Below, one piece after another: positions 14,956-64,000 of a stretch of 64,000 nt of DNA. Position numbers and translations under genes: made by a program. Every line of letters starts with the position of its first letter. Position 1 is the first letter of the stretch. Location of the stretch: IMG/VR virus record IMGVR_UViG_3300028833_000073, positions 64,001-128,000 of that record, one strand, 5' to 3'. The notes below the pieces were generated by a model, which worked only from the letters and a program-made list of their open reading frames with translations, made no database searches and was not told the origin of the DNA. The stretch comes from a virus (lineage: Duplodnaviria; Caudoviricetes).

Positions 14956-17900
14956 ATGTCAGCTATAGTAGATGATCTGAAAAACTATATGCTATACAAT
15001 AAAAAGATATATCTTCCAATTAATGATGATGACCGTAAAAATGGAAGTGCTATCTACTTACTTACTCCAAACTTGAATTCTTCTAAAGATATCTTAGGAG
15101 ATGTATATAATCATACTAAGTATGATGGTGCTATTAACTGGGCTAGCTACTATATGGAAAAGGATATGTCCTTCTATTTCCATACTGAATCTCATAAGAT
15201 GTCTAGACTAAGATCTAATCTTATTCTAGAGGATAGTGAATATACACTTGAGACAAATGTTAAAGGGACATTAAGTGAGTTCAAACGAGTGGAAATAAGT
15301 GAAGAGTTAATAGATCAATATAGTGGAGATTGTGATGATGTAAATGGATTGATTGGTTACTTTCCATGGACTGGTTATCTATATATGAATGAGAATGATC
15401 AGATAGTTGCTGGGTTAAATGTGAATGTAGATGATAGAGATATTCATAAGATCTTTGTGGTCGATGAAGAGAAGTATGGTTATCTATATAAGGATCTAAT
15501 TGCAGAAGCTAGAAAGATGAAAGCTAACTACTGTACCATTAGCAAGAATAATACAAGTGCTATCAAAGCACTTGAAGAATTTGGTTTTACTAAGACTGAA
15601 GACTTAGTAGACAATATAAAGATGCAGTTTAAGATTCCTATCACTGAATCTACTAGAGAGTCTGAAGTTATTGACTTCTTAGAACACTCTACTATGTTTA
15701 GACATATTAAGAACAATATCCAGTTTACTGAGCAGTATAAAGCTTTTAAGAAGCTAGTTATCTACTACTGTGAGTTCTTCAATATTAAGAAAGAGATAGG
15801 TATTCTAGGTGCTATCATTGTCTGTAGTAATAACCTAATCAATCCAGAAGAGTTGAGAGGGAATCTAAAGATTCTTAACTACATGAGTCAAGAAGAGATT
15901 GCTATTGCTTATAAGGCTGCTATGGGAGCATATGAACATAAGTTCATCGGAGAGAATATATATGATAGAATTCTATTTGATGGTTATAGACTCATACACT
16001 TCACAGATATTAATGTCATTATTAGAGATGAAGTCTTAGCTTACTATGATGAGCATAGTATTAATGGAAGATGGGATAATAACTTCCTATACATGAATGA
16101 AGTAGAAGAGATAGTGGAGAATATTAAGAGGAAGCATAGTACTAGTTCACCTAATCATATGATTCTTAATCTCTCTTATAGCTACTATAGGAAAGCTCAT
16201 AAGAAAGTACAATCTGCTATAAATAAGGGATTAACTAATAAAATTATCATTGACTATAGGGTCACTGTAAAAGAATCTGCTGAAGATGATATAGCTGCTA
16301 ATATACTCAATGAAAGTCATATCTCTTTTGGGTATGAGGATGAGAAGTTTACTAACTATGATCCTGATTGGAGATTCAAGTTATTTCCTAACCACAGAGG
16401 ACCTGGATTTGGATTTACTACTAAGACTGACTCTAAGAATCTAAGAGGAATCATTATAAGTTCTGGTACTGAGGTTAAAGGTGTTATAGGTGTAGATGAG
16501 TATAATAATATCATTGAGATGTACTGGACTGATATCAATCCTACTTTCTTACTAATGATTGCAGAACGTAAGTTCTATGCCAATAAAGTAGCTGTACCAA
16601 GGGGATATAAAGTAGCTATAGAAGCTCTTCAAGAATGTTCTAGCTGGTGTGAAGTAGAAAGAGATGAGCATGAAATTCACTTTGATTGTTACTCTCAAGA
16701 GAGGATTCCATATAAAGATATTGGGATTACTAAGAATGTAGCAAATATCTTTAATAGACTATCTTCTACTGACAAGGAGTATCTAGGTAATCAGTATCTT
16801 AACCCAGTATGTATCTCAAGTACTATCTGGAGTAAGGTATTAGAGGATACAGCTCTTGTAGATGTCTATGTACAACCTACTATGCCAAAGATCGGATGGA
16901 TTGATATTGCTGTGGTAGAATCTCAGAGAGGTAAAGGTTATGCTCTACGATTGATAAGAGAAACTCAAGAAGAGATAAAGACTAAGTTCAAAGATATAGA
17001 TGCTCTAGGATGGGTATGTCATAAAGACAATACTGCTTCATATAATCTTGCCACTAAAGCTGGTTTCTATCCATATAAAGAAGTAGAAGACCACAAGTAT
17101 CTTCTATGGACTATCCACAATACAGATATGATTCCTAATACATTCATAGAAGAAACAGAAGAGACTGAATGGACTGTAAAAGGTATAGAAGAATCATCTA
17201 CTATCAATGGTGATGGAGTAATGATGTTCATAGATGAAGATGTATCTAAGGTAATGGATGATGCTAAGTTTGGATCTAAGCTAAAGAAGATTATGTGGGA
17301 AGATAGAATTAGGAATAATAAGCAGGTACTACAGATATATGACTCTGTTAAGAAGGATACTAATGGTGGTATCAAGTACACCTATCTAGATCTTAATCTC
17401 TATAAGGGAAGGAATCTATTTGTTGACTTGTCATTCTATAACATTAGCTTCTTTAACAACTATACTAAGGCTGCTCCGAATGAAAGAGGACTAAATGAGA
17501 TGTACTTTGAGCTAGTATCTAGATTGATCAATGATAAAAGAATCAAGGATAAATATAAGAAAATCAATGTAATCATTCCTATAGAAGATTGGTGTAAAGA
17601 AGATATAAAGAAATATAAGGCTGAAGCTGTTAGAAAGGCAGACTACTGGGAGAATCTTAGTCCAATAGGTTGCTTCTTATTCTATGCAGAGAAGAATCCT
17701 TTAAGACTTCGTCAAGAGTTTAAGAATATTAACTTCATCTTCATTAGTGAGAGTGGTAGTTTCTTTAAGACTAACTTCACTGACTATGATAAGTCTAAAG
17801 ATTTTGTTAAGTTTAGAACTGCTGTACATAGCTTACTTAAGAGAGTCCATATTCCTAAGGATGAGACTTATGATAAGAAAGCTATAGTTCATAGTGTACT

Positions 17901-20900
17901 AGATAAAATGGAGTCTAATGGAGAAAACAAAGTAGTCATCAATAGCATTATAGCTAAACCTGAAGAACCTGGTAGTATTGATATACATGATCCAGCAGAT
18001 ATGAATGAAGAACAAAAGAAGAAAGCAGTTGTAACTAAGATTACTAATGCTGCTGAGAAAAGTAAGAGTCCTGAAGATGTAGTTGACACTATGTCTAAAG
18101 ACAATGAGTATGCCAAGGAATATACTGAAAAACTACTTAAGGATCTAGCTGATAATGAAACAGGGAATGTTAAGCTATCTGCTGCTAGAAGTAAGAGATT
18201 AGATAGTTTGAGTGAGAAGTTCTTATCTCAGAAGGTAGTAGATAATAAAGCTAAGTTTAATGGTACTATGGAGGAGTATATCAACTATAATTCTAATGCG
18301 GAAGAGTTACCTGAGACTGCATTACCTATAGAGAGTATCAATGAAGGATGGAAGCATCTTAAGTTTACTAACTTTGATGCTAGATATAGTGTAAGATCAG
18401 ATATCTATGCTATTCTATACTCATTTGAGAATAAGACTAGTAGGTTATCTATAAGGGATAAGATTGATATTGTAGATACTAGTACTACAGAAGACTGGAA
18501 GGAAACATGGACTGTTCCTTTTGAAGCTGATACAGGTAAGAGATTCAAGTTGAAGTTTGATGTTCCTTTGTTGAAAGATAATAGAAATATGGTATTAGGT
18601 GGTAATGACAAGACTATGAATGGTCAGCTAGTACTACTACCAATATCTAAGACAGATGAAGATACAGCACAGATAGTATCTCTTTACAATAAGATCTTTA
18701 TTAGAAGATATAGTATGGGCAACTGTAAGGCTAATAGGGAAACCGATAGGTTAAATAAAGCAATAGAGATTTTTACTAAAGAGCATCCAAATATTATGAA
18801 AATAACATATGGAGATAGCTCTAAGAGTAATGTGAAGTATGCTCTTCCTTTCGACTATACTGAGCTAGCTAGTATGTACTATAGCATAGAGCTGTATAAG
18901 AATAATAAACTAGAGCTTAAGATACTATTCAATCAAGACCAAGCAAGAAAAGAAGCAGGTCTTAAAGATGATGATACAAGAATGCCATATGGATACACTG
19001 TAAGAAATGGTAAGAAGGAAACTCTATTCTGGTATACTGATGATAGGATGGTATTTGCTAGTCAGGTTGTAGGTGTTATAAGTGGAAGATCAATTGAGTT
19101 TTATGATGTATATAAGAAGATAAAGCCAGGTGCTAAGCATTGCTATAGTAAGGCAAGCATTTTAGGTACTGAGATTCCAGTGATAATCATTATGGCTTAT
19201 TGTGAAGGATTGATAGAAGCTCTTAGAAAAGCTCATATCAACTATATTATCTCTGATAAGAGGGTCAATAGTTATAATGATACTCATGATATGATCAAAT
19301 TCAGTGATGCTTATCTATACTATGAAGATACTTATATTGGATCTATGCTTATGAATGGTATTAAAGATGTAGATACTAAAAGTCACTCTATACAAGAAGT
19401 AGATTCTAAGTCAATGTGGACTGAATTCTTAGATGAATATGGTGGTAGAGCTAAGTCCGATGGTCTTGATAACTTCTATGATCTTATGATGGATCCTATC
19501 ACTATCGAGGTATGTAATGTATATAAGCTTCCTACTGACTTCTGTGAGATGTTAGCTTATGCAAATCTCTTACTATCGACGAATGAGTATATAAAGCATA
19601 CTGATCTTAGTTCTAATAGATATAGAACCAATGAGATGATTGCTGTTCATGCTTATAAATGCTTAGCAAAAGCTTATGCTAATTATAGACTACAGCTTAA
19701 GAAGGAAAGATCTAATGTAGCTATGACTATGAAGCAGTCAGCTATCATTGACTCTATCATGGAAGAATCCATTATGTCAGATCTATCCATAATGAATCCT
19801 AACCTAGAAGCAGAAGCTATCAACTCTGTAGGATTCAAAGGACTTACTGGTATGAACAATGATAGATCTTACTCATTAGACAAGAGAACTTATGACAAGA
19901 GTATGACTAATAAGATTGCTATGTCTACTGGATTTGCTGGTAACGTAGGTGTTAATAGACAGACTACTATAGATATGCAGATATATGGTACTAGAGGATA
20001 TATAAAGAACTCGGATATGAAAGATGCATCTGTTACTAATACTCTTAGCATCACAGAAGCATTAACTCCATTTGGATCTACTAGAGATGACCCATTTAGA
20101 ACTGCTATGACTAATATCCAGACAAGTAAGCATAACATGAGAATCAAAGAGTCCATGCCTATGCTAGTGACATGTGGTGCTGATCAAGCATTACCATATC
20201 TTACAGGAGATACATTCTCGTTTAAAGCTAAGGGTAATGGTAAGGTTATTAAGAAAAATGATGATTATATGGTCGTAGAGTATGATAATAAGACTAGAGA
20301 GATGATAGATCTAAGAGAGAATGTTAAGAAGAACTCTGATGGTGGTTTCTATATCACTGTGAAGCTAGATACTAATCTTAAGAAGGGATCTAGATTCAAA
20401 GAGAAGGATATATTAGCATATGACAAGGTAGTATATAATGACTCAGTAGGTGACGGTAAGAATATAGCTTACTGTGTTGGTGCTTTAGCTAATGTAGCTT
20501 ATCTTAATACTGATGAAGGATTTGAAGATTCTGCTATTATCTCCAATAGATTAGCAGAAGCTTTATCATCTGAAGTAGTAGTAGAAGTTGCTAAGAACTT
20601 ACCTTGCAACACTAACATATTTGATATCGTTAAGAAGGGTACTAAAGTACAAGAAGGTGACACTCTACTCTTATTCCAGTCTCCATTTGAAGAAGAGGAT
20701 GCTAATAGAATCGTCAAGAATCTTGCTATGGATAAGAAAGAAGTATCTGAGCTAGGAAGAATACCATTAAGATCTAAAGTAACTGGTGTAGTACAAGATG
20801 TAAAGCTCTATAGAACAGTAGAACTATCTGAGATGTCTCCTAGTCTTAGGAAGTTGTTCAAGGAATATGAGTCTAAGATAGAAGTAATGAGAAAGGACTC

Positions 20901-21294
20901 TGAAGGAATGCTCAATAAGGTTCCTCTAGAAGCCAACTATAAACTTCCTGCTGTCTCTAAGATGAAGAATCTAGAAGGTAAGGTAAGAATTGAGTTCTAT
21001 ATAAAGTATAATGACAAGATGGGTATCGGAGATAAACTAGTATTCTACTCAGCAGTAAAAGGTGAGACTAAAAATATATTCCCCAGGGGGTTAGAACCCT
21101 ATACAGATGATCGTGGTAGTTCTGAAATTATTGATTCACTTTGTCCATTACCTAGTCTCTTACATCGTATGGTAGCATCAGTTACGATTGTTACTGGTCT
21201 CTATAAGGGTGTAGTAGAATTGACTAGATATATGAAGGAAGCCGTAGGATTAAAATATATTCCATATAATCCAAGAGAAGAAATTAAAAAATAA
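14956..21294 (+). CDS. Virion RNA polymerase beta subunit (unsplit) with N-terminal GNAT-domain insertions
   Basis: C-terminal half has RNAP beta motifs GFAGNVGVNRQ, DDPFRTAMTNIQTSKH, YLNTDEGFEDSAIIS, GDKLVFYSAVKG and IIDSLCPLPSLLHRMVAS. Late-type promoter AACT-CCTATA-TA at about 14919 suggests the virion enzyme. GNAT motif IAVVESQRGKGYA...NTASYNLATKAGF. Confidence 0.9.
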   Translation: MSAIVDDLKNYMLYNKKIYLPINDDDRKNGSAIYLLTPNLNSSKDILGDVYNHTKYDGAINWASYYMEKDMSFYFHTESHKMSRLRSNLILEDSEYTLETNVKGTLSEFKRVEISEELIDQYSGDCDDVNGLIGYFPWTGYLYMNENDQIVAGLNVNVDDRDIHKIFVVDEEKYGYLYKDLIAEARKMKANYCTISKNNTSAIKALEEFGFTKTEDLVDNIKMQFKIPITESTRESEVIDFLEHSTMFRHIKNNIQFTEQYKAFKKLVIYYCEFFNIKKEIGILGAIIVCSNNLINPEELRGNLKILNYMSQEEIAIAYKAAMGAYEHKFIGENIYDRILFDGYRLIHFTDINVIIRDEVLAYYDEHSINGRWDNNFLYMNEVEEIVENIKRKHSTSSPNHMILNLSYSYYRKAHKKVQSAINKGLTNKIIIDYRVTVKESAEDDIAANILNESHISFGYEDEKFTNYDPDWRFKLFPNHRGPGFGFTTKTDSKNLRGIIISSGTEVKGVIGVDEYNNIIEMYWTDINPTFLLMIAERKFYANKVAVPRGYKVAIEALQECSSWCEVERDEHEIHFDCYSQERIPYKDIGITKNVANIFNRLSSTDKEYLGNQYLNPVCISSTIWSKVLEDTALVDVYVQPTMPKIGWIDIAVVESQRGKGYALRLIRETQEEIKTKFKDIDALGWVCHKDNTASYNLATKAGFYPYKEVEDHKYLLWTIHNTDMIPNTFIEETEETEWTVKGIEESSTINGDGVMMFIDEDVSKVMDDAKFGSKLKKIMWEDRIRNNKQVLQIYDSVKKDTNGGIKYTYLDLNLYKGRNLFVDLSFYNISFFNNYTKAAPNERGLNEMYFELVSRLINDKRIKDKYKKINVIIPIEDWCKEDIKKYKAEAVRKADYWENLSPIGCFLFYAEKNPLRLRQEFKNINFIFISESGSFFKTNFTDYDKSKDFVKFRTAVHSLLKRVHIPKDETYDKKAIVHSVLDKMESNGENKVVINSIIAKPEEPGSIDIHDPADMNEEQKKKAVVTKITNAAEKSKSPEDVVDTMSKDNEYAKEYTEKLLKDLADNETGNVKLSAARSKRLDSLSEKFLSQKVVDNKAKFNGTMEEYINYNSNAEELPETALPIESINEGWKHLKFTNFDARYSVRSDIYAILYSFENKTSRLSIRDKIDIVDTSTTEDWKETWTVPFEADTGKRFKLKFDVPLLKDNRNMVLGGNDKTMNGQLVLLPISKTDEDTAQIVSLYNKIFIRRYSMGNCKANRETDRLNKAIEIFTKEHPNIMKITYGDSSKSNVKYALPFDYTELASMYYSIELYKNNKLELKILFNQDQARKEAGLKDDDTRMPYGYTVRNGKKETLFWYTDDRMVFASQVVGVISGRSIEFYDVYKKIKPGAKHCYSKASILGTEIPVIIIMAYCEGLIEALRKAHINYIISDKRVNSYNDTHDMIKFSDAYLYYEDTYIGSMLMNGIKDVDTKSHSIQEVDSKSMWTEFLDEYGGRAKSDGLDNFYDLMMDPITIEVCNVYKLPTDFCEMLAYANLLLSTNEYIKHTDLSSNRYRTNEMIAVHAYKCLAKAYANYRLQLKKERSNVAMTMKQSAIIDSIMEESIMSDLSIMNPNLEAEAINSVGFKGLTGMNNDRSYSLDKRTYDKSMTNKIAMSTGFAGNVGVNRQTTIDMQIYGTRGYIKNSDMKDASVTNTLSITEALTPFGSTRDDPFRTAMTNIQTSKHNMRIKESMPMLVTCGADQALPYLTGDTFSFKAKGNGKVIKKNDDYMVVEYDNKTREMIDLRENVKKNSDGGFYITVKLDTNLKKGSRFKEKDILAYDKVVYNDSVGDGKNIAYCVGALANVAYLNTDEGFEDSAIISNRLAEALSSEVVVEVAKNLPCNTNIFDIVKKGTKVQEGDTLLLFQSPFEEEDANRIVKNLAMDKKEVSELGRIPLRSKVTGVVQDVKLYRTVELSEMSPSLRKLFKEYESKIEVMRKDSEGMLNKVPLEANYKLPAVSKMKNLEGKVRIEFYIKYNDKMGIGDKLVFYSAVKGETKNIFPRGLEPYTDDRGSSEIIDSLCPLPSLLHRMVASVTIVTGLYKGVVELTRYMKEAVGLKYIPYNPREEIKK

Positions 21295-21915: not shown

Positions 21916-21993
21916 TGTGAATATCTCTGAATTCAGAGATATATTATATATGTAGTAATAGGGTACCTTGTTTAACAACAAGGAGGAATTACC

Positions 21994-22101
21994 ATGAGAT
22001 TCTTTATATATCGTCTAGCAGAAACCACCTGCAAAAACGAATGGATCTTTGACGTAATTAATCATGTAATGTTTGATTTACTTATCACTTGTTTGCGATA
22101 A
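21994..22101 (+). CDS. 35-aa peptide MRFFIYRLAETTCKNEWIFDVINHVMFDLLITCLR inside a structured early transcript
   Basis: RBS AAGGAGG; early-type promoter at about 21916-21950; transcript ends form a perfect 17-bp inverted repeat. Confidence 0.55.
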   Translation: MRFFIYRLAETTCKNEWIFDVINHVMFDLLITCLR

Positions 22102-22201
22102 GCGACATTACCTCTGATCCTCGTTGTTGTGACTTGCAATCGCTTACGGTGGTATGAATATCACTCGCAATGTCAAACTCAAGGTACCCTATTACTTTTT
22201 G

Positions 22202-22786
22202 TCAAATAGTCTTATCTTTATATTCATTCTCATACTTTCTAGATAGAGTAACACAATACTTATTCATCTCTTCATCTTCTTCACCATTGAGAGTATATAG
22301 AATCATTGTATGGAAGTTAGCATCAAAGGTTACTGCTAGTCTACTTAGGATGTAGTATGAACTAATCATCCACCAACCAGCATCTTGCTTATCATTGAAG
22401 AGAATATCAAAGACTTCTCTATCAATACCAGTTCTATAAGCAAGAATATTAGTGTTTCTTTTTTCTATGTTTTGTTCTCTACAATACTTGAGAACTAGTT
22501 CCTTCATCCATTGGAATTCCGTATAAGGATCTCCCTTGATAGGAATAAACTCTAATGGTTCATCTATCAATCCATACAGATAGTCACAATTGACATTAAG
22601 CTCTCTTGCTATCTCGTATACAAAAGAATCTGGGAACTCGTCTCTTACATAGAAACTATGTAAGATCTCATTAAGTCTTTTATCTGTATGATGGCTATGC
22701 ATTATAAATTTATCTTTAAGACTCTCTACTTCTATTTTTTTCTCTTCACATAACCTTCTAACTCTCATGCAATTTATTGAAATCAT
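22202..22786 (-). CDS. Putative XRE-type helix-turn-helix protein (possibly two HTH domains)
   Basis: VYEIARELNVNCDYLYGL and ILAYRTGIDREVFDIL...ILSRLAVTFDANF resemble XRE HTH; ATG 22786 after RBS AAGGAGTG. Confidence 0.6.
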   Translation of the reverse strand: MISINCMRVRRLCEEKKIEVESLKDKFIMHSHHTDKRLNEILHSFYVRDEFPDSFVYEIARELNVNCDYLYGLIDEPLEFIPIKGDPYTEFQWMKELVLKYCREQNIEKRNTNILAYRTGIDREVFDILFNDKQDAGWWMISSYYILSRLAVTFDANFHTMILYTLNGEEDEEMNKYCVTLSRKYENEYKDKTI

Positions 22787-31973: not shown

Positions 31974-32139
31974 TTACTATAAACGGGGGTACCTAATGGT
32001 ACCCTCAAAAAGTGTGAAAAGTTCATTTTTCAGAGATATATTATTGGTAGAATACCAATACCACCATGCATTCGGATAGAATGCAATTCCCTTTTTTAAT
32101 TTTTCTGACCAAACCCGAAAATAGGTATATATTATATAT

Positions 32140-32478
32140 GTGAGTCTAGAGTGATAATTGTTTAAAATAAACAAAACAATCATATAACTAATTCGTGATA
32201 GCCTAAGGTTGGAGTATTCCTGTGAAAGGATCGGGGCGCTATACTGAGATAGAATCAAAGGGCGCTTATACTAATGCATGGATCTAAGTAATAGGGAGTG
32301 TAGCTATGGTGATTCATGGGCGTGTCTTCAGCGGAGATAGTATCAATGTTACGCCTAATACCGAGATAACATCAAGGGGCGCAAAGTCTTTTAGGGCATA
32401 ATAGGCAGCAGGAAACCAAGCGGCGCCAAATCAATACATGATTAGAGTACCTTTATTGGTACTCTATATTCTTTTTTA
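32140..32478 (+). ncRNA. Putative early non-coding RNA with internal repeats
   Basis: Early-type promoter 32106-32138; terminator 32444-32478; no ORF; repeats TACYGAGATA..ATCAA.GGGCGC. Confidence 0.5.
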
Positions 32479-34665: not shown

Positions 34666-35256
34666 ATGTCTTTGATGGAAACGATAAAGAGATTTGGTAA
34701 TACAGAAACATTTGTTACTGAGAGTATGGAGGTTGAGCTAGGACTAGAGGATGCTATCAATGAGTATTCAGGTCTAGCTGTTACTCCTACTAGGGTTGCA
34801 TTCCCTGCTAGTCAGGTTCCTGTAGCAGAATTTGCTGATCCTAGTCTACCATGTAAATATGGTGTTTCGGCGGATATTTTTTCAATCTTTATGGAGCGTA
34901 ATGGTCTAAAAGATATTCAAGAGGCTATGTCTACTATCGCTATGTCTAATGGTATTTCTTCTAAGGACATTATGCTTGTAATGGATAGTGATGATGTCAT
35001 TAGGAGAACTATTGACGAAGCTAAGGTAGATCCTAATACTATCACTCGTAAAGAGAAGCTTACTAATATCGCTAAGGTTGGTAAGCTAATACAACATAGT
35101 AGAGAAACTGGAGTCTTTGTGGCTAAAGAGCCTAATGTAGAGAACCCTCCAGTATATCAAGTTCAATGGAATGACAATCCTAACATTGTCAACATTGAAA
35201 GAGATACTTGTGATCTTGGTCTATTTTCTGATGAGCGTCAGCTCACCTTCAAGTAA
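34666..35256 (+). CDS. Putative virion (inner head) protein
   Basis: Late-type promoter AACT-CAATGG-TA at about 34627; N-terminal FVTES/AINE motifs resemble head-protease sites. Confidence 0.55.
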   Translation: MSLMETIKRFGNTETFVTESMEVELGLEDAINEYSGLAVTPTRVAFPASQVPVAEFADPSLPCKYGVSADIFSIFMERNGLKDIQEAMSTIAMSNGISSKDIMLVMDSDDVIRRTIDEAKVDPNTITRKEKLTNIAKVGKLIQHSRETGVFVAKEPNVENPPVYQVQWNDNPNIVNIERDTCDLGLFSDERQLTFK

Positions 35257-35259
35257 GCA

Positions 35260-35441
35260 ACAAACAATCTCCTACCAATACGGTAGGAGATTTATTTGCT
35301 AAGTTATTATGTGAGAATTATATGAAAGGAGGTAATGCACATGAAAAACCATATGCGTAATGTGAGATAATGTTAGTTACGCAAACAAGTGTAACCGAAG
35401 TGTACCCAAAGGAAAAGCTGAATTGCCCACAAGCTTACCTT
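35260..35441 (-). ncRNA. Putative late small RNA carrying the ACUUGUUUGC hairpin and an anti-RBS/anti-AUG segment
   Basis: AACA-AAATAA-TA promoter at 35452; GUUAC-ACUUGUUUGC-GUAAC hairpin (35395-35376); UUUUUCAUGUGCAUUACCUCCUUUCAU; terminator at about 35265-35295. Confidence 0.6.
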
Positions 35442-35531
35442 ATTATTTTGTTATGACCAAAAAAATATATAGACACATATTATATATGTGGTGGTATTGG
35501 GTAAAATTCTAATAGAAAGGAAGGAATAACA

Positions 35532-36266
35532 ATGGCCACGTATACAAGACTTGATATGCAATCACAGATATTTGAAGAAGGAGTTTTGAATATATTTACA
35601 GATGCCAGTATCAATCCCTTGGGAAATAATAAATGGGATGGATGTGCTGGTGCAATACCTGTAACTTATGATCATAAGATTAATAATCTTACGGAATATA
35701 TACCGATGATAAGAGTGTTTAGAGATTGCACTAATAATATTGCAGAACTTTCAGCCATAGAGATGGCATGTGAGTTTGCAGTAAGCAATCAATCTAAGTA
35801 TGTCAGAATCAATCTCTTTAGTGATTCTGAGTATAGTATTAAGACGTTGAAAGAATGGATTTTTAATTGGGCCAAAGTATCATGCCGTGATGGTATTGAA
35901 GGCTTTAGAAATCTTAGAAAGAGTGATGGTAACTTAGTAAAAAATCATACCATCATCATAAATATTATCAACAAGATTTTGTCAATAGATCCTAGACAGT
36001 GTGGCTTTAATGTGTACCATGTAAAGGCTCACACTAACGGGGACAGTAAGAAAGTACAAGAGCAGTTTAAGAAAGCTAATAAGATATCTATTAATATCTT
36101 AGATGCTGATATCTTAGCTTACTACAATGACAAAGTAGATAATCTTACAAGAGATATCTTACTTAGCAATGAAAGTAGTTATTATGAGTGTGAGGTAGTA
36201 CCATATGCAATACTTCCTTATGCTTTTAATAAATATAAGAGAATTATAGGTTCAAGGAGGTTCTAG
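35532..36266 (+). CDS. rnhA: Ribonuclease HI
   Basis: IFTDAS, TNNIAELSAI, LFSDSEYSI, HVKAH and YNDKVDNL catalytic motifs. Confidence 0.9.
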   Translation: MATYTRLDMQSQIFEEGVLNIFTDASINPLGNNKWDGCAGAIPVTYDHKINNLTEYIPMIRVFRDCTNNIAELSAIEMACEFAVSNQSKYVRINLFSDSEYSIKTLKEWIFNWAKVSCRDGIEGFRNLRKSDGNLVKNHTIIINIINKILSIDPRQCGFNVYHVKAHTNGDSKKVQEQFKKANKISINILDADILAYYNDKVDNLTRDILLSNESSYYECEVVPYAILPYAFNKYKRIIGSRRF

Positions 36267-42426: not shown

Positions 42427-42461
42427 GTCCTCACCATAACGGTGAGGATTTTATTTTTTGC

Positions 42462-42953
42462 ACTAAATACCTCCCATCCGAAGATGGGAATAGTATCTAG
42501 CTCAACGCAAACAAGTGTTGATTACTTTAGAAAGGATCGCTTACAGAAAAATACGTGCTGGCTACTTTTATGTTAGTACTATATCAAAGACTAAATACCT
42601 CCCATCCGAAGATGGGAGTAGTATCTAGCTCAACGCAAACAAGTGTTGATTACTTGAACATATTCCTGCCGAAAAAAATTCTTTGCATATTTTTATGTTA
42701 GCACTATATTAAAGACTAAATATCTCCCATCCAAAGATGGGAGTATATCTAGTTCTAACGCAAACAAGTGTTAGATGAACGAACCAAAGTTATGATTTCT
42801 CACCCATGAGTAATCCCCATTATATTGTTATAAAGAAATTAAAAGTTACAGGACCTCCATCCTGCAACTTTTAATTTTTGGTGTATCAGCAATGACTAAA
42901 ATAACCACAGAGAAGAACTATCATTTTCTGCTCTATAGCTATACTATAGTGTT
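42462..42953 (-). repeat. Tandem array of four promoter-sRNA-terminator units (period about 125-128 bp), three with a conserved hairpin-plus-terminator block
   Basis: Promoters AACA-N6-TR at 42574, 42699, 42829 and 42953; near-identical 66-bp blocks at 42462 and 42590 and a diverged third at about 42715; unrelated 35-45-nt segments between them. Confidence 0.8.
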
Positions 42954-44948: not shown

Positions 44949-47900
44949 GTGGCTTATCAACTTAAGAAGATATTTAGTAATAATCCTTTCTTAGATCATA
45001 TAGTATATCAGTCTAAATATATTGCACTTAACTGTGTATGCAAGGATATCAATAAAGCAAATAAGTATGAAACAGCAGAGACAGCTAGAAACTTCGATAT
45101 CTATCTAGCTTGTACTCGTAATCCAGATTGGTTTCTATTTGATAGTATTCCGTATGAAGTTATTAAGAAAGCTATAGGTCATAAGTATAGTGATAGACAG
45201 ATAAGACGGATATATGTTCCCTATAAGGATAATATCCCTGAAGAAGATAGACCAGCAGTATTAGCTGAAATGGCTAAATACTATATAGAGCATTTTGAAG
45301 AGAAGAATGATTACTATAGAGAGGTAATGGGATATAGACCATCATATAGTAAAGAGAGAATCTTATTAGAAGATTATGGATTTGAGAATGATCTAGTAGC
45401 TCAGCAAGGTAAGTTATATACATATCTAGATGAACTACCAGATTCTATTCTATATAATCTTATAACCAATGGTACCATTCAGAAGATTATCAATGATTAT
45501 CCTGATGAGAAATGGGTAGCTCATATCCCTATGAGAATAGACACTAGTGAAGATGGTACTGATACATTATCTCTCTACATGGTAAGACATGCAGAAGAGT
45601 TCGATTTACTATATATGCCATCAGATGCAGATGAGATCATAAGAGAACAGTTTGCAGAGAGATATGAGTTAAACCAAGACTATATTCTAGGTAATGTATA
45701 CTCGGAAGCAATGAAGATAGGATCTGAAGATTACTATGATAACTTCATACAGATCCTTATCATAACCTGTACTATGTTAGATATGTTTGATACAGTACAA
45801 GATCATATAGTGAGAAGAGATATCTTCGATGCTAGGTGTATTGAATATATCTTTGAGCAGTACAATGTACCTTACTATAGTGAAATTCCTATTAGATACC
45901 AACAAGCTATGCTTAAGAATCTAAATACTCTAGTGAAGTTTAAGTCAACGGCTAGATGTATGATAGATCTTTGTTCATTATTTGGCTTTGAATCATCTCA
46001 GATCTTCCAATTCTATATACTTAGAAAGAGAAAGATGAATGAGAATGGAGACTATATCTTTAATTATAAGACTATTATAGTTCCTAATGATGTAGAGGAA
46101 GTAGTAAAGCAATCAAGTGTCTATACTATCTCCAATACTACTAAAATATTCATCACTATCAATCCTCCTATAGTGAATTTCTATGAAGATGTCAATCATA
46201 AGATTCTAGTATTCCTTAATGGAGAGCTAGTAGATCCTAGTCTATATGATGTAGATGAAGAGAATAATAGAATTATCTTCCATAATAGCAATGATATCAA
46301 TGAAGAAGATATTACTTTAGAATACGTTTATACTAATCCAGATGGTACAGATATAAAACAAGATACTCAAGAGATACTAGTATCAGATTTAGATATAGAC
46401 GGAGGTGCTAATCCGGTATATATCAGAATAGAGTTTCCTATTGGATATAATGATGCAGAAATTAAAGGAATATCAGTGTTTATAGATGGAGTTGAGCTAG
46501 ATGATACATATTGGACTACAGTTGGTGGATTGCTAATGATAGTACGTGGTAATCTCATACATGACACCTATAAGATAACGATTAATTTTACATGGAGAGA
46601 TCCAGATTATATAGATTTAATTAGACAGAAAGAAGGAGCAGAGTCTCAGAGCACTACTAATCATGTTATAGCTATTGAATATCCTATAGATCACTTTGGA
46701 GATGATGAATCAGATAAGATTATAGTTACTACAGAGAATGGTAAAGTATCTCCAAATGACTATATTATCTCAGGTAATAAGATATTCTTCATAGGAGAAG
46801 ATATCTTAAGAAACAATGATAAGATTATACTTATATTCCAGCACGGTACTGACCCGATACAAGAATACACTATACAATACTATACTAGAAATATCCTTAA
46901 GACTTATGTCATTCTTAATTACCCAGTAGAGAACTACTTCTCTAGTGGTAATAAGGTTGAGGTATGGATTAATGGACAGCTACTACCAGAGCAATATTAC
47001 TCAGTCTATGATGATAAGCTCTATATAGAAGATGAGAATATACTAAAGAATTATGAAGACATAGAAGTCAAGTATTTATACAATAACAGTGAAGAGGAGA
47101 TAAATATTCCAGATCATTCTATCATCATGAGTGATGAGTCTATGATATATACATCATCTCAGAGCATATATACTCTTCATCCTCCTGTAGAGAATTACTT
47201 TGATCTTGGCGGATATATCTTTGTCATACTAGGTACCTTATTACTACATGAAGACTGTTATGATATTCTACCTGAGTCTAATCAGATCTTTATCCATGCC
47301 GATGTACTAAATCATTATAAATTTACTAAAGATATGAAGATACTATATATGTACTCGGAGGCAATAGATCTTAAGAAGAAAGATGTAGATGTAATATCAA
47401 CTCAGAAGGGACAAACATCCTTTATTATACCAGAACCATTTGAAGGTTACTATGAAGCAGGAGGAAGATTCTTCTTATCTACTGGTGGAGGATATATACA
47501 TGAGTCTAGATACCATGTAGAAGGAAATACTCTTATCTTCAATAGTCCTAATGATGGTCTTCCAGAAGGTAAGACATTAACCTTCCATTTCATCTATAAC
47601 TTGTTTAGCAATGTAGGTATAAGATATGAGAATGTAATTCTTACAGCTACTAGTAATCATCAGACTACATTTACTATACCTTTACCTTATGAGAATTATA
47701 TAGCAGATGGTAATCCTATATTTGTAAAGATTCGGGGATCATATCTTGATCCTCAGTTCTACGAGATTCTTAAGAATCAAATAGTCCTTCATAATAACTA
47801 CAGTCTATATCCAGGAGCAATACTAGAACTAGAGTTTGTATATGGAACTATTAAAGAGATTAAACATACTATGGTTGCTGTAAAGGCTACTATTACAGTA

Positions 47901-57887: not shown

Positions 57888-58519
57888 AAAAAATAAAAGA
57901 TTTGACAAAACAGAAAAGCCCTCCGAAGAGGGCCGGTGTTTATTTACTTTGTTTCATTTACATATACTTCTTCAAGGATACTATCCAAGTATTCAAGATA
58001 CTCTTTGTCCTTCTGGCTAAGATTATCAATCTTACCAGTTCTTATATAGAAATGCTTTAATGTCTCGAACTCACATGGATAATCCATTTCTTCAGGTTTA
58101 TCAATATCTGCCCAGGCTACAACAGATTGTCCAAAATATTTTGTAGAACAAGTGCTATGCCATTCATATTCTCTTAAGTTATTTCCCATGAACCTGTTCT
58201 CAATGCATGATTTAGGCATCATTTCACGATACACAATATCATAACACGCATGTTTACCATCAATATATACTGGTCTAAATGGAACATACCCTAAAACTAG
58301 CTTTCCAAGAGGCGGAAGTTCATCCAAGCAATTATGCCAATGAAGATTAGATAGTAACTTTCCGTTTTGATCCAATGTAATAATGTCTTTCATTATTAAT
58401 TTCCTCCTTTTAAACACATCATATTCATTTCGGCACATCTATAATATATGCCTATTTTTGAATTTGGTTAGGAAAAAATAAAAGATTTGACAAAACAGAA
58501 AAGCCCTCCGAAGAGGGCC
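57888..58519. repeat. Identical 47-bp direct repeats (57888-57934 and 58473-58519) containing a terminator hairpin
   Basis: AAAAAATAAAAGATTTGACAAAACAGAAAAGCCCTCCGAAGAGGGCC occurs twice. Confidence 0.9.
57944..58393 (-). CDS. DUF551-like protein
   Basis: HWHNCLDELPPLGKLVLGY...VVAWADI; ATG 58393 after AAGGAGG. Confidence 0.6.
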   Translation of the reverse strand: MKDIITLDQNGKLLSNLHWHNCLDELPPLGKLVLGYVPFRPVYIDGKHACYDIVYREMMPKSCIENRFMGNNLREYEWHSTCSTKYFGQSVVAWADIDKPEEMDYPCEFETLKHFYIRTGKIDNLSQKDKEYLEYLDSILEEVYVNETK

Positions 58520-60801: not shown

Positions 60802-60939
60802 TTTACTTACCCCTTTCTAAATACCAATACAATTCTATTCTTACATACTATCCTCCTTTATATTAGATTCAGATAAAGAGTATAAGAGTACCAAAAACGG
60901 TACTCTTATATCCTTAATTATCTCATCTATAATATATCT

Positions 60940-62281: not shown

Positions 62282-62553
62282 CATGTTTGTTCACGTAAGA
62301 TGGTTAAACTTACGCCGTCTTAATGTAAAGACTGCTATATGTCACCATATAGATCAGACTATATCACATACTCATATGAGTATCTTAGTATTTCGAGTCA
62401 CCAATTGACCCTACGTCTTTCGACTAGTCGTTGAACCTTCACATCCTTTCTAGGATTAGCTCGGCTGCTGATTGTCTTATCATATGATAAGAGTTTCCAG
62501 CAATTAACTAAGTTTTTCCATATAGAGTCACCTCTATAGGCCCCGCGCAGTTC
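62282..62553 (-). mobile_element. Group I intron 1 (272 nt, no ORF)
   Basis: Exon ends CCU with P1 CCCU/GGGG; terminal G at 62282; P AATTGCTGGAAAC, Q AATCAGCAG, R GTTCAACGACTA, S ATATAGTCT; removal restores NRNPTL. Confidence 0.9.
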
Positions 62554-64000
62554 AGGGTTACGATTAATTATGAATGGGATCCCGTTTTCGTTTGCTTTGA
62601 TAATGTAGTTAACGATCTTCCATACACGATCATCATAATCCGTATAGGCTTTATCAAAGACTGCTTTAGCAGTATGCATAGCCATACCATAAGTATTATG
62701 GAGGATATTGATAATCGCATGTTCAAGAAGCTTAACCAATGCCTTAAACGGCAACTTGATCTGATCAGTTCTAAGAGTCCAGTTAGGTACAATAACAGCT
62801 CTGCAACTGAAATTATACCGGCCACCATACAGTGACCTAATAATACCTTTCTTAGAACTCATGATCTTGATTACTTCATCATAAATCTCCATGAGATTAA
62901 ACTGAAGATCATAGAGTAATTGATTGCGGGTCTTCTTAGACCTGCGTCCTTTTATTGATTCTTTATGATTGATGATAGCTCCGAGCATAGCCATGATATT
63001 AAAGTACTTATTCGTATCCTGGAATGCAAACTTATCACCATTAAGATGATATGGACGCAAGAGAGTAGTAAACACAGGAATACTATGAGTGAATACTTTT
63101 TCTCTATCGTGCATGATATCATCATATACATCTTTCTTATTTGGATTCATCTTAAGATAATAGTCCATGATCTCATCGAAGTTCTCATAGAACCCCAACA
63201 TTCCATAATCATAGTACTTATCTAAATCTCCTCTTTCTACTTGGATAGAAAATCCATTCTCATCCTTTTCATCCTTTGGATCAAGAATACCTGTGAGTGC
63301 TGCCTTACCAATAAAGAACTCAATAGACTTATACAATCCTGGATGTATCACATAGTCATCATCCAGAATAATCCATCCAGTAATCTTGAAATCATCATTC
63401 TTCTTCACTACCTTCTTACCACAGATAGGACAGATAGTTCCTTCATTCTGTTGGTTCTTAGTAGCTCCACACGGACAAGTATATCTAGTTCCATAAGAAC
63501 TAGCATCATCAAATGTAGGACCAAACAAAGGAGAATAGATTGAGTTAGGTTCTTTGATATCCTTCTTAACTCCTTGAGGTTTCTCGATACGGATTCCTTT
63601 ACCTTTACCAAAGTCTTCCATCCGTTCTTCATCAAGATTGATTCTTTCAATCCATGTTCTATATTCATATTTATTACTGTGAGGATACGATGAGTCTTTA
63701 TCATCCACTGGAATGGGAGCTTTAGCTACTATTGCTTTTACTACTTCATATGGATTTGCAAGAGATTCTGCTAATCCAGTTCTAAGAAGATTATTAACTT
63801 CTTCTTTCCTTTTATTGAAGTTGCTTATTCCCCTCCATTTATCCTCAACTTTGAAATTCTTATAGTTGGATCCTTCAGTGGGAACAACCATAGAAAAGTG
63901 TCTTTCCTTTGGATAGTCCTTTAGCATTGATTCTCTTTGCTCTCCATGGAAATACTCTATTTTGCTTCCAACTGTAGGTACCACCTTAGAAAACTTCTTT
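62554..64000 (-). CDS. Non-virion RNAP beta' exon 1 (start lies outside the window)
   Basis: Zn finger CPCG...CPICG; IPVFTTLLRP; KKGIIR...GGRYNFSCRAVIVP; INRNP; frame open to the window edge. Confidence 0.9.

Follow-up and report, generated by a model that had tools for sequence, protein, structure and literature searches.

The gap between two genes of this phage raises the question of whether a ribosome-binding site followed by only nine codons is a place where ribosomes start, or the mirror image of a small RNA transcribed from the opposite strand. In giant phages, regulatory RNAs have hardly been studied. The window analyzed here, a stretch of 64,000 nucleotides, comes from an uncultured giant phage of the sheep gut, which is represented by a 158-kb record in IMG/VR. 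The completeness of the record was estimated at 64%, and against a relative of ~297 kb nearly half of the genome lies outside the 158 kb that served as the searchable genome. ORF 14956..21294 encodes an RNA polymerase beta subunit of the AR9/phiKZ (giant-phage) multisubunit type (phrog_3148, E 1e-128). The recurrent promoter motif of the phage, ...ATATATTAT-6N-G, fits the early-promoter consensus reported for Bacillus phage AR9, AAATATATATTAT-(6N)-G (PMC5312081), whose late-promoter consensus is given as AACA-(6N)-TA/G with the start site at the last base (PMC5312081). The Shine-Dalgarno (SD) sites of the phage genes are strong; the host probably uses strong SD sites, because the phage's own genes carry AAAGGAGG.

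The locus is a 275-nt gap (35257-35531) between gene 34666..35256 and the RNase H gene 35532..36266 (PF00075). Neither the DNA of the regions tried nor two proteins matched anything in a cultured-phage collection, and no relatives of the RNase H protein were found in IMG/VR. Relatives were obtained via homologues of a flanking protein and comprised 10 loci that are about 97% alike (L127-L132 and L201-L204) and one diverged relative with 84% protein identity (L133). The contigs of two metatranscriptome runs (X8 and X23), which carry no strand information, gave no usable cover of 35257-35450 or of the tandem array described below and are neutral either way. As a separate observation, an IS605-type TnpB gene (OrfB_IS605, Cas12f1-like_TNB) was present at L127:6427-7524 and also in L128, L129, L132, L163, and L164. 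It sits between genes that adjoin each other in the window, is absent from the window record, and has no link to the hairpin family described here. The early promoter of the RNase H gene is directly followed by the leader GGTGGTATTGGGTAAA at 35487-35510, an arrangement that was found at at least six other loci of the genome, and promoter, TGACCAAA upstream box, and terminator form a repeated cassette (family D1).

Read from the minus strand, the gap is best described as a candidate small-RNA gene of ~185 nt, running from 35441 down to ~35256; this reading rests on a motif grammar derived from AR9. All of the elements named in an earlier note on this DNA were found in place. A late-promoter-like motif, AACAAAATAATA, lies at 35441..35452, with the predicted start A at 35441, and is a match to the AR9 late consensus only. 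It is followed on the minus strand by a 5' variable segment of ~44 nt (35397..35440) and by the handle hairpin, GGUUAC-ACUUGUUUGC-GUAACU (35375..35396), whose loop was predicted to be unpaired with a probability of 0.8. A second hairpin, GCAUAUGG-UUUU-UCAUGUGC (35337..35356), contains the complement of the plus-strand ATG, is present in both the minimum free energy and the centroid folds, and is partly kept in L133, with 2 of 7 pairs broken. Next is the anti-SD box, ACCUCCUUU (35325..35333; AAAGGAGGT on the plus strand), and the unit ends in a terminator at 35258..35301 with a core hairpin, a lower stem, and a U/G-rich tail, which also serves the upstream plus-strand gene. The core is a 12-pair hairpin (35292-35266 on the minus strand) followed by GUUUGUUGCU, and the terminator scan matched both strands. 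On the plus strand, the SD sequence GAAAGGAGGT (35324-35333) is followed, after 8 nt, by the ATG at 35341 of the ORF MKNHMRNVR (35341..35370), which is probably not a peptide gene. No match to Rfam was found at gathering scores, nor at E values up to 5 over 21200-43100.

We infer the strand of transcription from the motif match and from comparison with related units. The earlier proposal of a self-contained minus-strand unit proved to be the best comparative reading, on the basis of the promoter kept in L133, the grammar of the arrays, and the pairing of the terminator. The AACA-N6-TA motif at 35452-35441 survives in L133 as AACAAATTAGTA despite a changed N6. The general motif (AACA-N6-TA/G) is of low information; the 158-kb record contains it 169 times, including 27 intergenic occurrences. 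The late-promoter motif lies 44 nt from the handle in the 35-kb unit, and in the L133 array all six units carry AACAT(A/C)(C/T)A(A/G)(A/G)TA 40 to 55 nt 5' of the handle on the same strand. After the handle, the L133 array units have a GC hairpin with a U-rich tail, and the same layout was found in all three array units of the window. The distance from handle to terminator is 84 nt in the 35-kb unit versus 8 to 12 nt in the array units. The array hairpins have UUCG, UACG, and GAAA tetraloops on the strand that reads ACUUGUUUGC and unremarkable loops on the opposite strand.

The terminator showed the same strand preference. At the locus itself, 19 of 19 positions pair on the minus strand (3 as G-U) and 16 of 19 on the plus strand. 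Across three sequences, the lower stem pairs at 19/19, 18/19, and 19/19 positions on the minus strand versus 16 to 17 of 19 on the plus strand, with eight G-U pairs versus one and two compensatory changes in L133. The helix is thus complete on the minus strand only, because the G-U pairs form there; G-U pairs within the handle were uninformative on the strand. The terminator core, CCUACC...GGUAGG, also ends the handle units L087 unit 1, L161 unit 1, and L133:10305. Because it recurs at such unrelated places, it is a component of both the handle unit and the upstream gene.

The perfect-looking initiation region on the plus strand may nevertheless simply be one. According to this explanation, which we regard as unlikely, only the plus-strand element is real, either as an initiation site or as an SD-type mRNA stabilizer that is not translated; the minus-strand promoter match is due to chance, and the handle hairpin is an mRNA element. 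The RNA would be read-through from gene 34666..35256 or a late 5' untranslated region of the RNase H gene starting from AACAATCTCCTA at 35263. This late-like motif on the plus strand qualifies the earlier statement that the ORF has no evident promoter. A start there would fall in the 5' arm of the terminator and would disable it, and L133 has lost the motif together with the ATG, as would fit a linked function. The SD, its spacing, and the ATGAAAA are ideal, the genes flanking the gap are all on the plus strand, and orphan SD-ATG sites occur in other mRNA leaders of the phage, at 60846 (ATG-TAA) and 78140. On the other hand, the early promoter of the RNase H gene sits downstream of the handle element, and the array units have no plus-strand promoter, with tetraloops, U tails, and promoter motifs that fit the minus strand. 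L133 also keeps the SD box without a start codon 5 to 10 nt behind it, and the length and frame of the ORF differ between alleles.

Comparison of the window with L133 separated the conserved from the diverged parts of the locus. The terminator hairpin was 89% identical, the handle 91%, and the promoter motif 83%, whereas the spacer was 32% identical, the mini-ORF region 41%, and the 5' segment 35%; the 5' segment is 100% identical to that of the L127 type. The box ACCUCCUUU/AAAGGAGGT was invariant in 7 of 7 orthologous sequences, including L133, between flanks of only 32 to 41% identity. The locus had been described as a complete antisense copy of a ribosome-binding site and start codon. The SD complement stood as an island of conservation, whereas the start-codon part did not, since ATA replaces ATG in L133. 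In the L127-type allele, found at 10 of 12 orthologous loci (L127-L132 and L201-L204), a 1-nt deletion shortens the ORF to seven codons (MKNHMRT*), and this allele also has no upstream ATG at 35322. Neither strand has a small ORF that keeps its frame and sequence from the window to L133. A peptide-coding minigene is therefore unlikely, because the ORF is shortened in the commonest allele and the ATG is lost in L133. In the predicted fold, the box at 35325..35333 had a mean unpaired probability of 0.71, compared with 0.48 for the whole RNA, and across six predicted transcripts the values were 0.53 to 0.85 for the box and 0.36 to 0.48 for the transcript means; by symmetry, such unpairedness would hold for the plus strand too.

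The same alleles weaken the alternative raised in the earlier note, an antisense-controlled minigene, which was carried to seven codons by a frameshift in one case and left without its ATG in the other. In the general form of this explanation, both strands are used and the minus-strand RNA covers the orphan initiation site that lies directly opposite on the plus strand, and we consider such a sense/antisense pair rather improbable. The complementarity would be perfect by construction, an SD-ATG lies inside the predicted minus-strand unit in four units, and no better trans target was found in the phage 158 kb or in IMG/VR. However, the product of the mini-ORF is unconserved (9 amino acids, 7 amino acids, or none), no plus-strand promoter is conserved, and there is no apparent benefit in controlling an ORF of seven to nine codons. 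Moreover, between L087 and L161 the box has switched its side of the handle and its sequence, which is more like cargo turnover than a fixed gene pair. A conserved translated gene opposite the RNA, as in cis-antisense regulation of the P22 sar type, was not found at the locus, where the opposite strand encodes nine codons, seven codons, or no ATG, and neither was a conserved hydrophobic toxin ORF of ~20 to 60 amino acids, as in type I toxin-antitoxin systems.

The handle places the locus in a family, which we define by a variable stem of 5 to 7 bp, a closing C-G pair, and the invariant loop ACUUGUUUGC. In this genome, the loop occurs in five hairpins with differing stems, at 22087, 35381, 42507, 42635, and 42760. 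A 14-mer around the loop was found four times exactly and six times with up to two mismatches, versus 0.14 expected, and the copy at 46107 has no hairpin. The distant giant-phage contig L087 contained two handle copies in a pattern scan, and L161, which is 79% identical to L087, contained two further copies. The alignment of 16 handle copies (15 distinct) from four phage lineages showed that 82.9% of stem cells pair, compared with 50.9% in shuffles, and the covariation score of the stem was 0.829 versus 0.168, with none of 500 shuffles as high. One of the changes is a swap of a stem pair from G:C to C:G between the window and L133. The closing C-G pair was present in 14 of 15 distinct copies. 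One exception to the loop, T to A, was found among the aligned copies, in L133:10431, and both handle copies of L161 share the loop variant ACUUGCUUGC. A concerted change of this kind is as expected if a trans-acting factor were to read the loop.

Wider scans found the family in few places. An exact 14-mer scan of IMG/VR gave 117 matches, mostly due to chance, with true hairpins only in L087. A scan of IMG/VR and JGI metagenomes for two handles at array spacing found only unrelated repeats without stems, and a scan of IMG/VR for promoter plus handle gave 31 chance matches. The 250-kb phage L170 carries a different hairpin around the same letters, in a single copy and without an Rfam match, and was not counted as a member. 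We also considered the handle as the end of a conserved peptide (TCLR-stop), but rejected this possibility, as the copies are read in different frames and no start codon occurs in the array units. The handle family appears to be undescribed so far.

Members of the family also occur in larger RNAs and in a tandem array. The RNA at 21950-22215 (plus strand) is driven by an early promoter, with a predicted folding energy of -78.3 kcal/mol (z -5.9), and the RNA at L161 643-880, also driven by an early promoter, has the same layout (-76.5 kcal/mol, z -8.2). The former is closed by a helix of 16 to 17 bp (GTAATAGGGTACCTTG / CAAGGTACCCTATTAC) and the latter also by a long helix. The 21950-22215 RNA contains a strong SD with a 35-codon ORF whose end falls within the handle; the SD pairs with an anti-SD inside the same RNA. 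The closing helices at 22 kb suggested a retron, which was rejected because a reverse transcriptase is absent from the 158 kb (no PF00078 match). The copy number of the array at 42427-42951 depends on the sample, with three units in the window and six in L133, and DNA contigs of two other runs join 42562-42688 or 42608-42734, leaving two units.

Elsewhere in the window, an ORF-free RNA of ~330 nt at 32140-32475, preceded by an early promoter (32099-32140) and followed by a terminator (32444-32475), has repeated GAGATA..ATCAA.GGGCGC motifs and a fold z-score of only -0.38. A metatranscriptome contig over 32160-32425 had a depth of 24.8, about 6 times that of other phage pieces, and one DNA run held a variant with 17 letters in place of 32067-32465.

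The design of a handle joined to an anti-initiation box recurs outside this locus. A second lineage contributes three further handle units with anti-(SD + AUG) boxes; these boxes are predicted to be unpaired and lie before or after the hairpin. The pattern CAU-N6-8-(A)CCUCC occurs 5' of the handle in L087 unit 1 and 3' of the handle in L161 unit 1, and L087 unit 2 has the same CAU layout with CCCCU replacing CCUCC. The initiation-region strings (box plus spacer) of the individual units are GGAGGTAATGCACATG, GGAGGTCAAAAAATG, GGGGATAATTATG, and GGAGGTGTACTTTATG. A CAU lies 6 to 8 nt 5' of the box in four of the five distinct box-carrying units; by our own estimate from base composition, such a placement has a chance of ~5% per unit, and four of five is thus unlikely. 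L087 unit 1 and L161 unit 1 have a common promoter (AACTTTTTAGTA / AACATTTTAGTA) and terminator, with boxes that differ in side and sequence. This turnover at an orthologous unit argues that the anti-initiation-site box would be selected cargo and not a decaying gene start. The handle units of the tandem array have no anti-SD box, and most members of the family are without one. Translational silencing, put forward before as the function of the whole family, could thus not be upheld: because array members do without the box, the 35-kb locus cannot define the function of the family, and the box is the cargo of some members.

These observations also bear on the explanation that the ribosome-site copy has no function. 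A mobile or recombining cassette of promoter, hairpin, and terminator would then have come to lie on the decayed 5' end of a gene, and selection would act on the handle alone, which might serve in protein binding, processing, or packaging. Units of the L087/L161 type are accessory, with only 42 to 72 nt at the L087 junction in four further relatives (from L163-L168); the array holds two or three units depending on the sample, and its members have no box, all of which agree with such a cassette. A functionless copy is nonetheless a doubtful explanation, because the box is an island of conservation amid diverged flanks, the CAU 6 to 8 nt 5' of it in four of five distinct units is unlikely by chance, and the L087/L161 orthologues carry two different boxes, one on each side of the handle, which argues for repeated gain.

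The earlier note took the RBS-ATG as the imprint of a trans target mRNA in host or phage. This was not borne out, as searches of the phage's 158 kb, IMG/VR, and 185,579 species genomes gave no specific target. The short-word BLAST suggested as a check on the phage genome, extended by k-mers and duplex energies, gave complementarity no better than that of shuffles, and the longest complementarities of every variable segment in the 158 kb were those of shuffled controls. Among 137 initiation regions, the best duplex was formed with gene 36269 (-30.2 kcal/mol), which was equaled by 23 of 100 flank-shuffled controls. Its complementarity lies in two blocks of 10 and 8 nt, GAGAAUUAUA and AAGGAGGU, and L133 gave no clear sign that the element covaries with this initiation region. 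At gene 25524, 15 of 16 nt matched, and 16 of 16 in L127, a site that is mostly generic SD and at chance level. A search with an 18-mer found no other copy in IMG/VR. A 21-mer had one match in the 185,579 species genomes, at a gene start in a Saprospiraceae metagenome-assembled genome from wastewater. This gene start was rejected as a target, since uniform sequence would give ~0.3 matches by chance, a figure that rises for gene starts, and wastewater is the wrong habitat.

Altogether, the best-supported reading is that the locus encodes a small RNA on the minus strand whose anti-SD box is functional, and we put this forward tentatively, on sequence comparison; the function of the putative small-RNA family is unproven. 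In the mechanism that we propose, the phage's own non-virion RNA polymerase would transcribe the unit late, from an AR9-type AACA-N6-TA promoter. The RNA would consist of a fast-evolving 5' segment, the handle hairpin, the second hairpin, the single-stranded box ACCUCCUUU, and an intrinsic terminator, in this order. The box would mirror the SD and, in the window allele, also the spacer and AUGAAAA. Once exposed, it would most likely pair with the translation-initiation region of at least one mRNA and keep 30S subunits off, and the handle may be a docking site for a coevolving factor. We infer each of these steps, namely, the transcription of the predicted RNA, its timing, its pairing, and its effect on translation, from the arrangement of the elements. 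As a counterpoint, the late mRNAs of the phage itself have the same SD and would be affected as well by a generic anti-SD RNA.

The mechanism proposed for the 35-kb unit is a variant of known anti-ribosome-site RNAs. P22 sar and P1/P7 c4 are reportedly phage antisense RNAs that cover a ribosome-binding site and have a conserved protein-coding target (ant/icd); sar RNA is said to mask the ribosome site of ant. Like these, the unit would give a small phage RNA with its own predicted promoter and terminator and a single-stranded complement of SD and start. Unlike sar and c4, the opposite ORF has seven to nine codons or is absent, the search for a trans target was empty, and the unit carries a family hairpin common to at least 15 other units. 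The RsaE/RoxS-type small RNAs of Firmicutes have C-rich seeds that pair with SD sequences and contain several UCCC motifs. The present unit resembles these trans-acting anti-SD RNAs in its unpaired C-rich SD complement, located between hairpins and ahead of the terminator, and no targets beyond generic SD were found for it in the searches described above. It differs from RsaE/RoxS in having a single box, in being phage encoded and probably made by a phage polymerase, and in showing no sequence similarity and no Rfam match.

The family also resembles CRISPR crRNAs and guide RNAs in its constant hairpin, its variable segment of 40 to 55 nt, and its tandem arrays that differ in the variable part. 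In contrast to crRNAs, each unit has its own promoter and terminator, and the stem varies around a constant loop. No cas, TnpB, or reverse transcriptase gene (PF00078, PF07282) was found in the 158 kb, and the variable segments, taken as spacers, matched none of the searched sequences. A guide RNA of TnpB was likewise rejected, as the 158-kb record contains no TnpB. It is improbable that the handle docks a phage-encoded protein and that the units are programmable guides, made late, by which selected mRNAs would be silenced at translation or cleaved independently of CRISPR. In that case, exchangeable targeting cargo would be provided by the variable segments and by the anti-(SD + AUG) boxes. 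This idea agrees with the concerted loop change in L161, with the box turnover from L087 to L161, and with variable arrays in which each unit has its own promoter. As a further speculation, the UUGU of the loop could mimic the template-strand element read by the AR9-type polymerase. In AR9, which has two multisubunit RNA polymerases, late AACA-N6-TA/G promoters drive antisense and noncoding transcription (PMC5312081). The minus-strand unit is similar to these transcripts in the form of its late-promoter-like motif and in belonging to a giant phage with a multisubunit polymerase type, and differs from them in that the passages of that article considered here mention neither a shared hairpin nor an array nor an anti-SD box for AR9 (PMC5312081).

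If the minus-strand small RNA is real, these giant phages of the ruminant gut would encode modular small RNAs that join a shared hairpin to exchangeable pairing segments, including a class that mirrors ribosome-binding sites. Such RNAs would give the phage a means of switching translation in the course of infection, and silencing RNAs for Gram-positive hosts could be designed on their natural scaffold. The invariant 9-nt box, the invariant 10-nt loop, and the defined ends can each be mutated separately.

In addition, several features were observed elsewhere in the window record. The orphan SD-ATG sites mentioned above are both strong: the one at 60846 (minus strand) is a start-stop, AAGGAGGATAGTATG-TAA, behind an early promoter, and the one at 78140 (plus strand) reads AAGGAGG..ATG AGA TAA, with two codons. 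A group I intron (RF00028, 73.3 bits) lies at 62335-62563 on the minus strand, beside or inside the minus-strand ORF 62398..63984. A perfect direct repeat of 47 nt, with TTGACA and a GC hairpin (GCCCTCCGAAGAGGGC), is located at 57888-57934 and 58473-58519, and its two copies precede two neighboring minus-strand genes.
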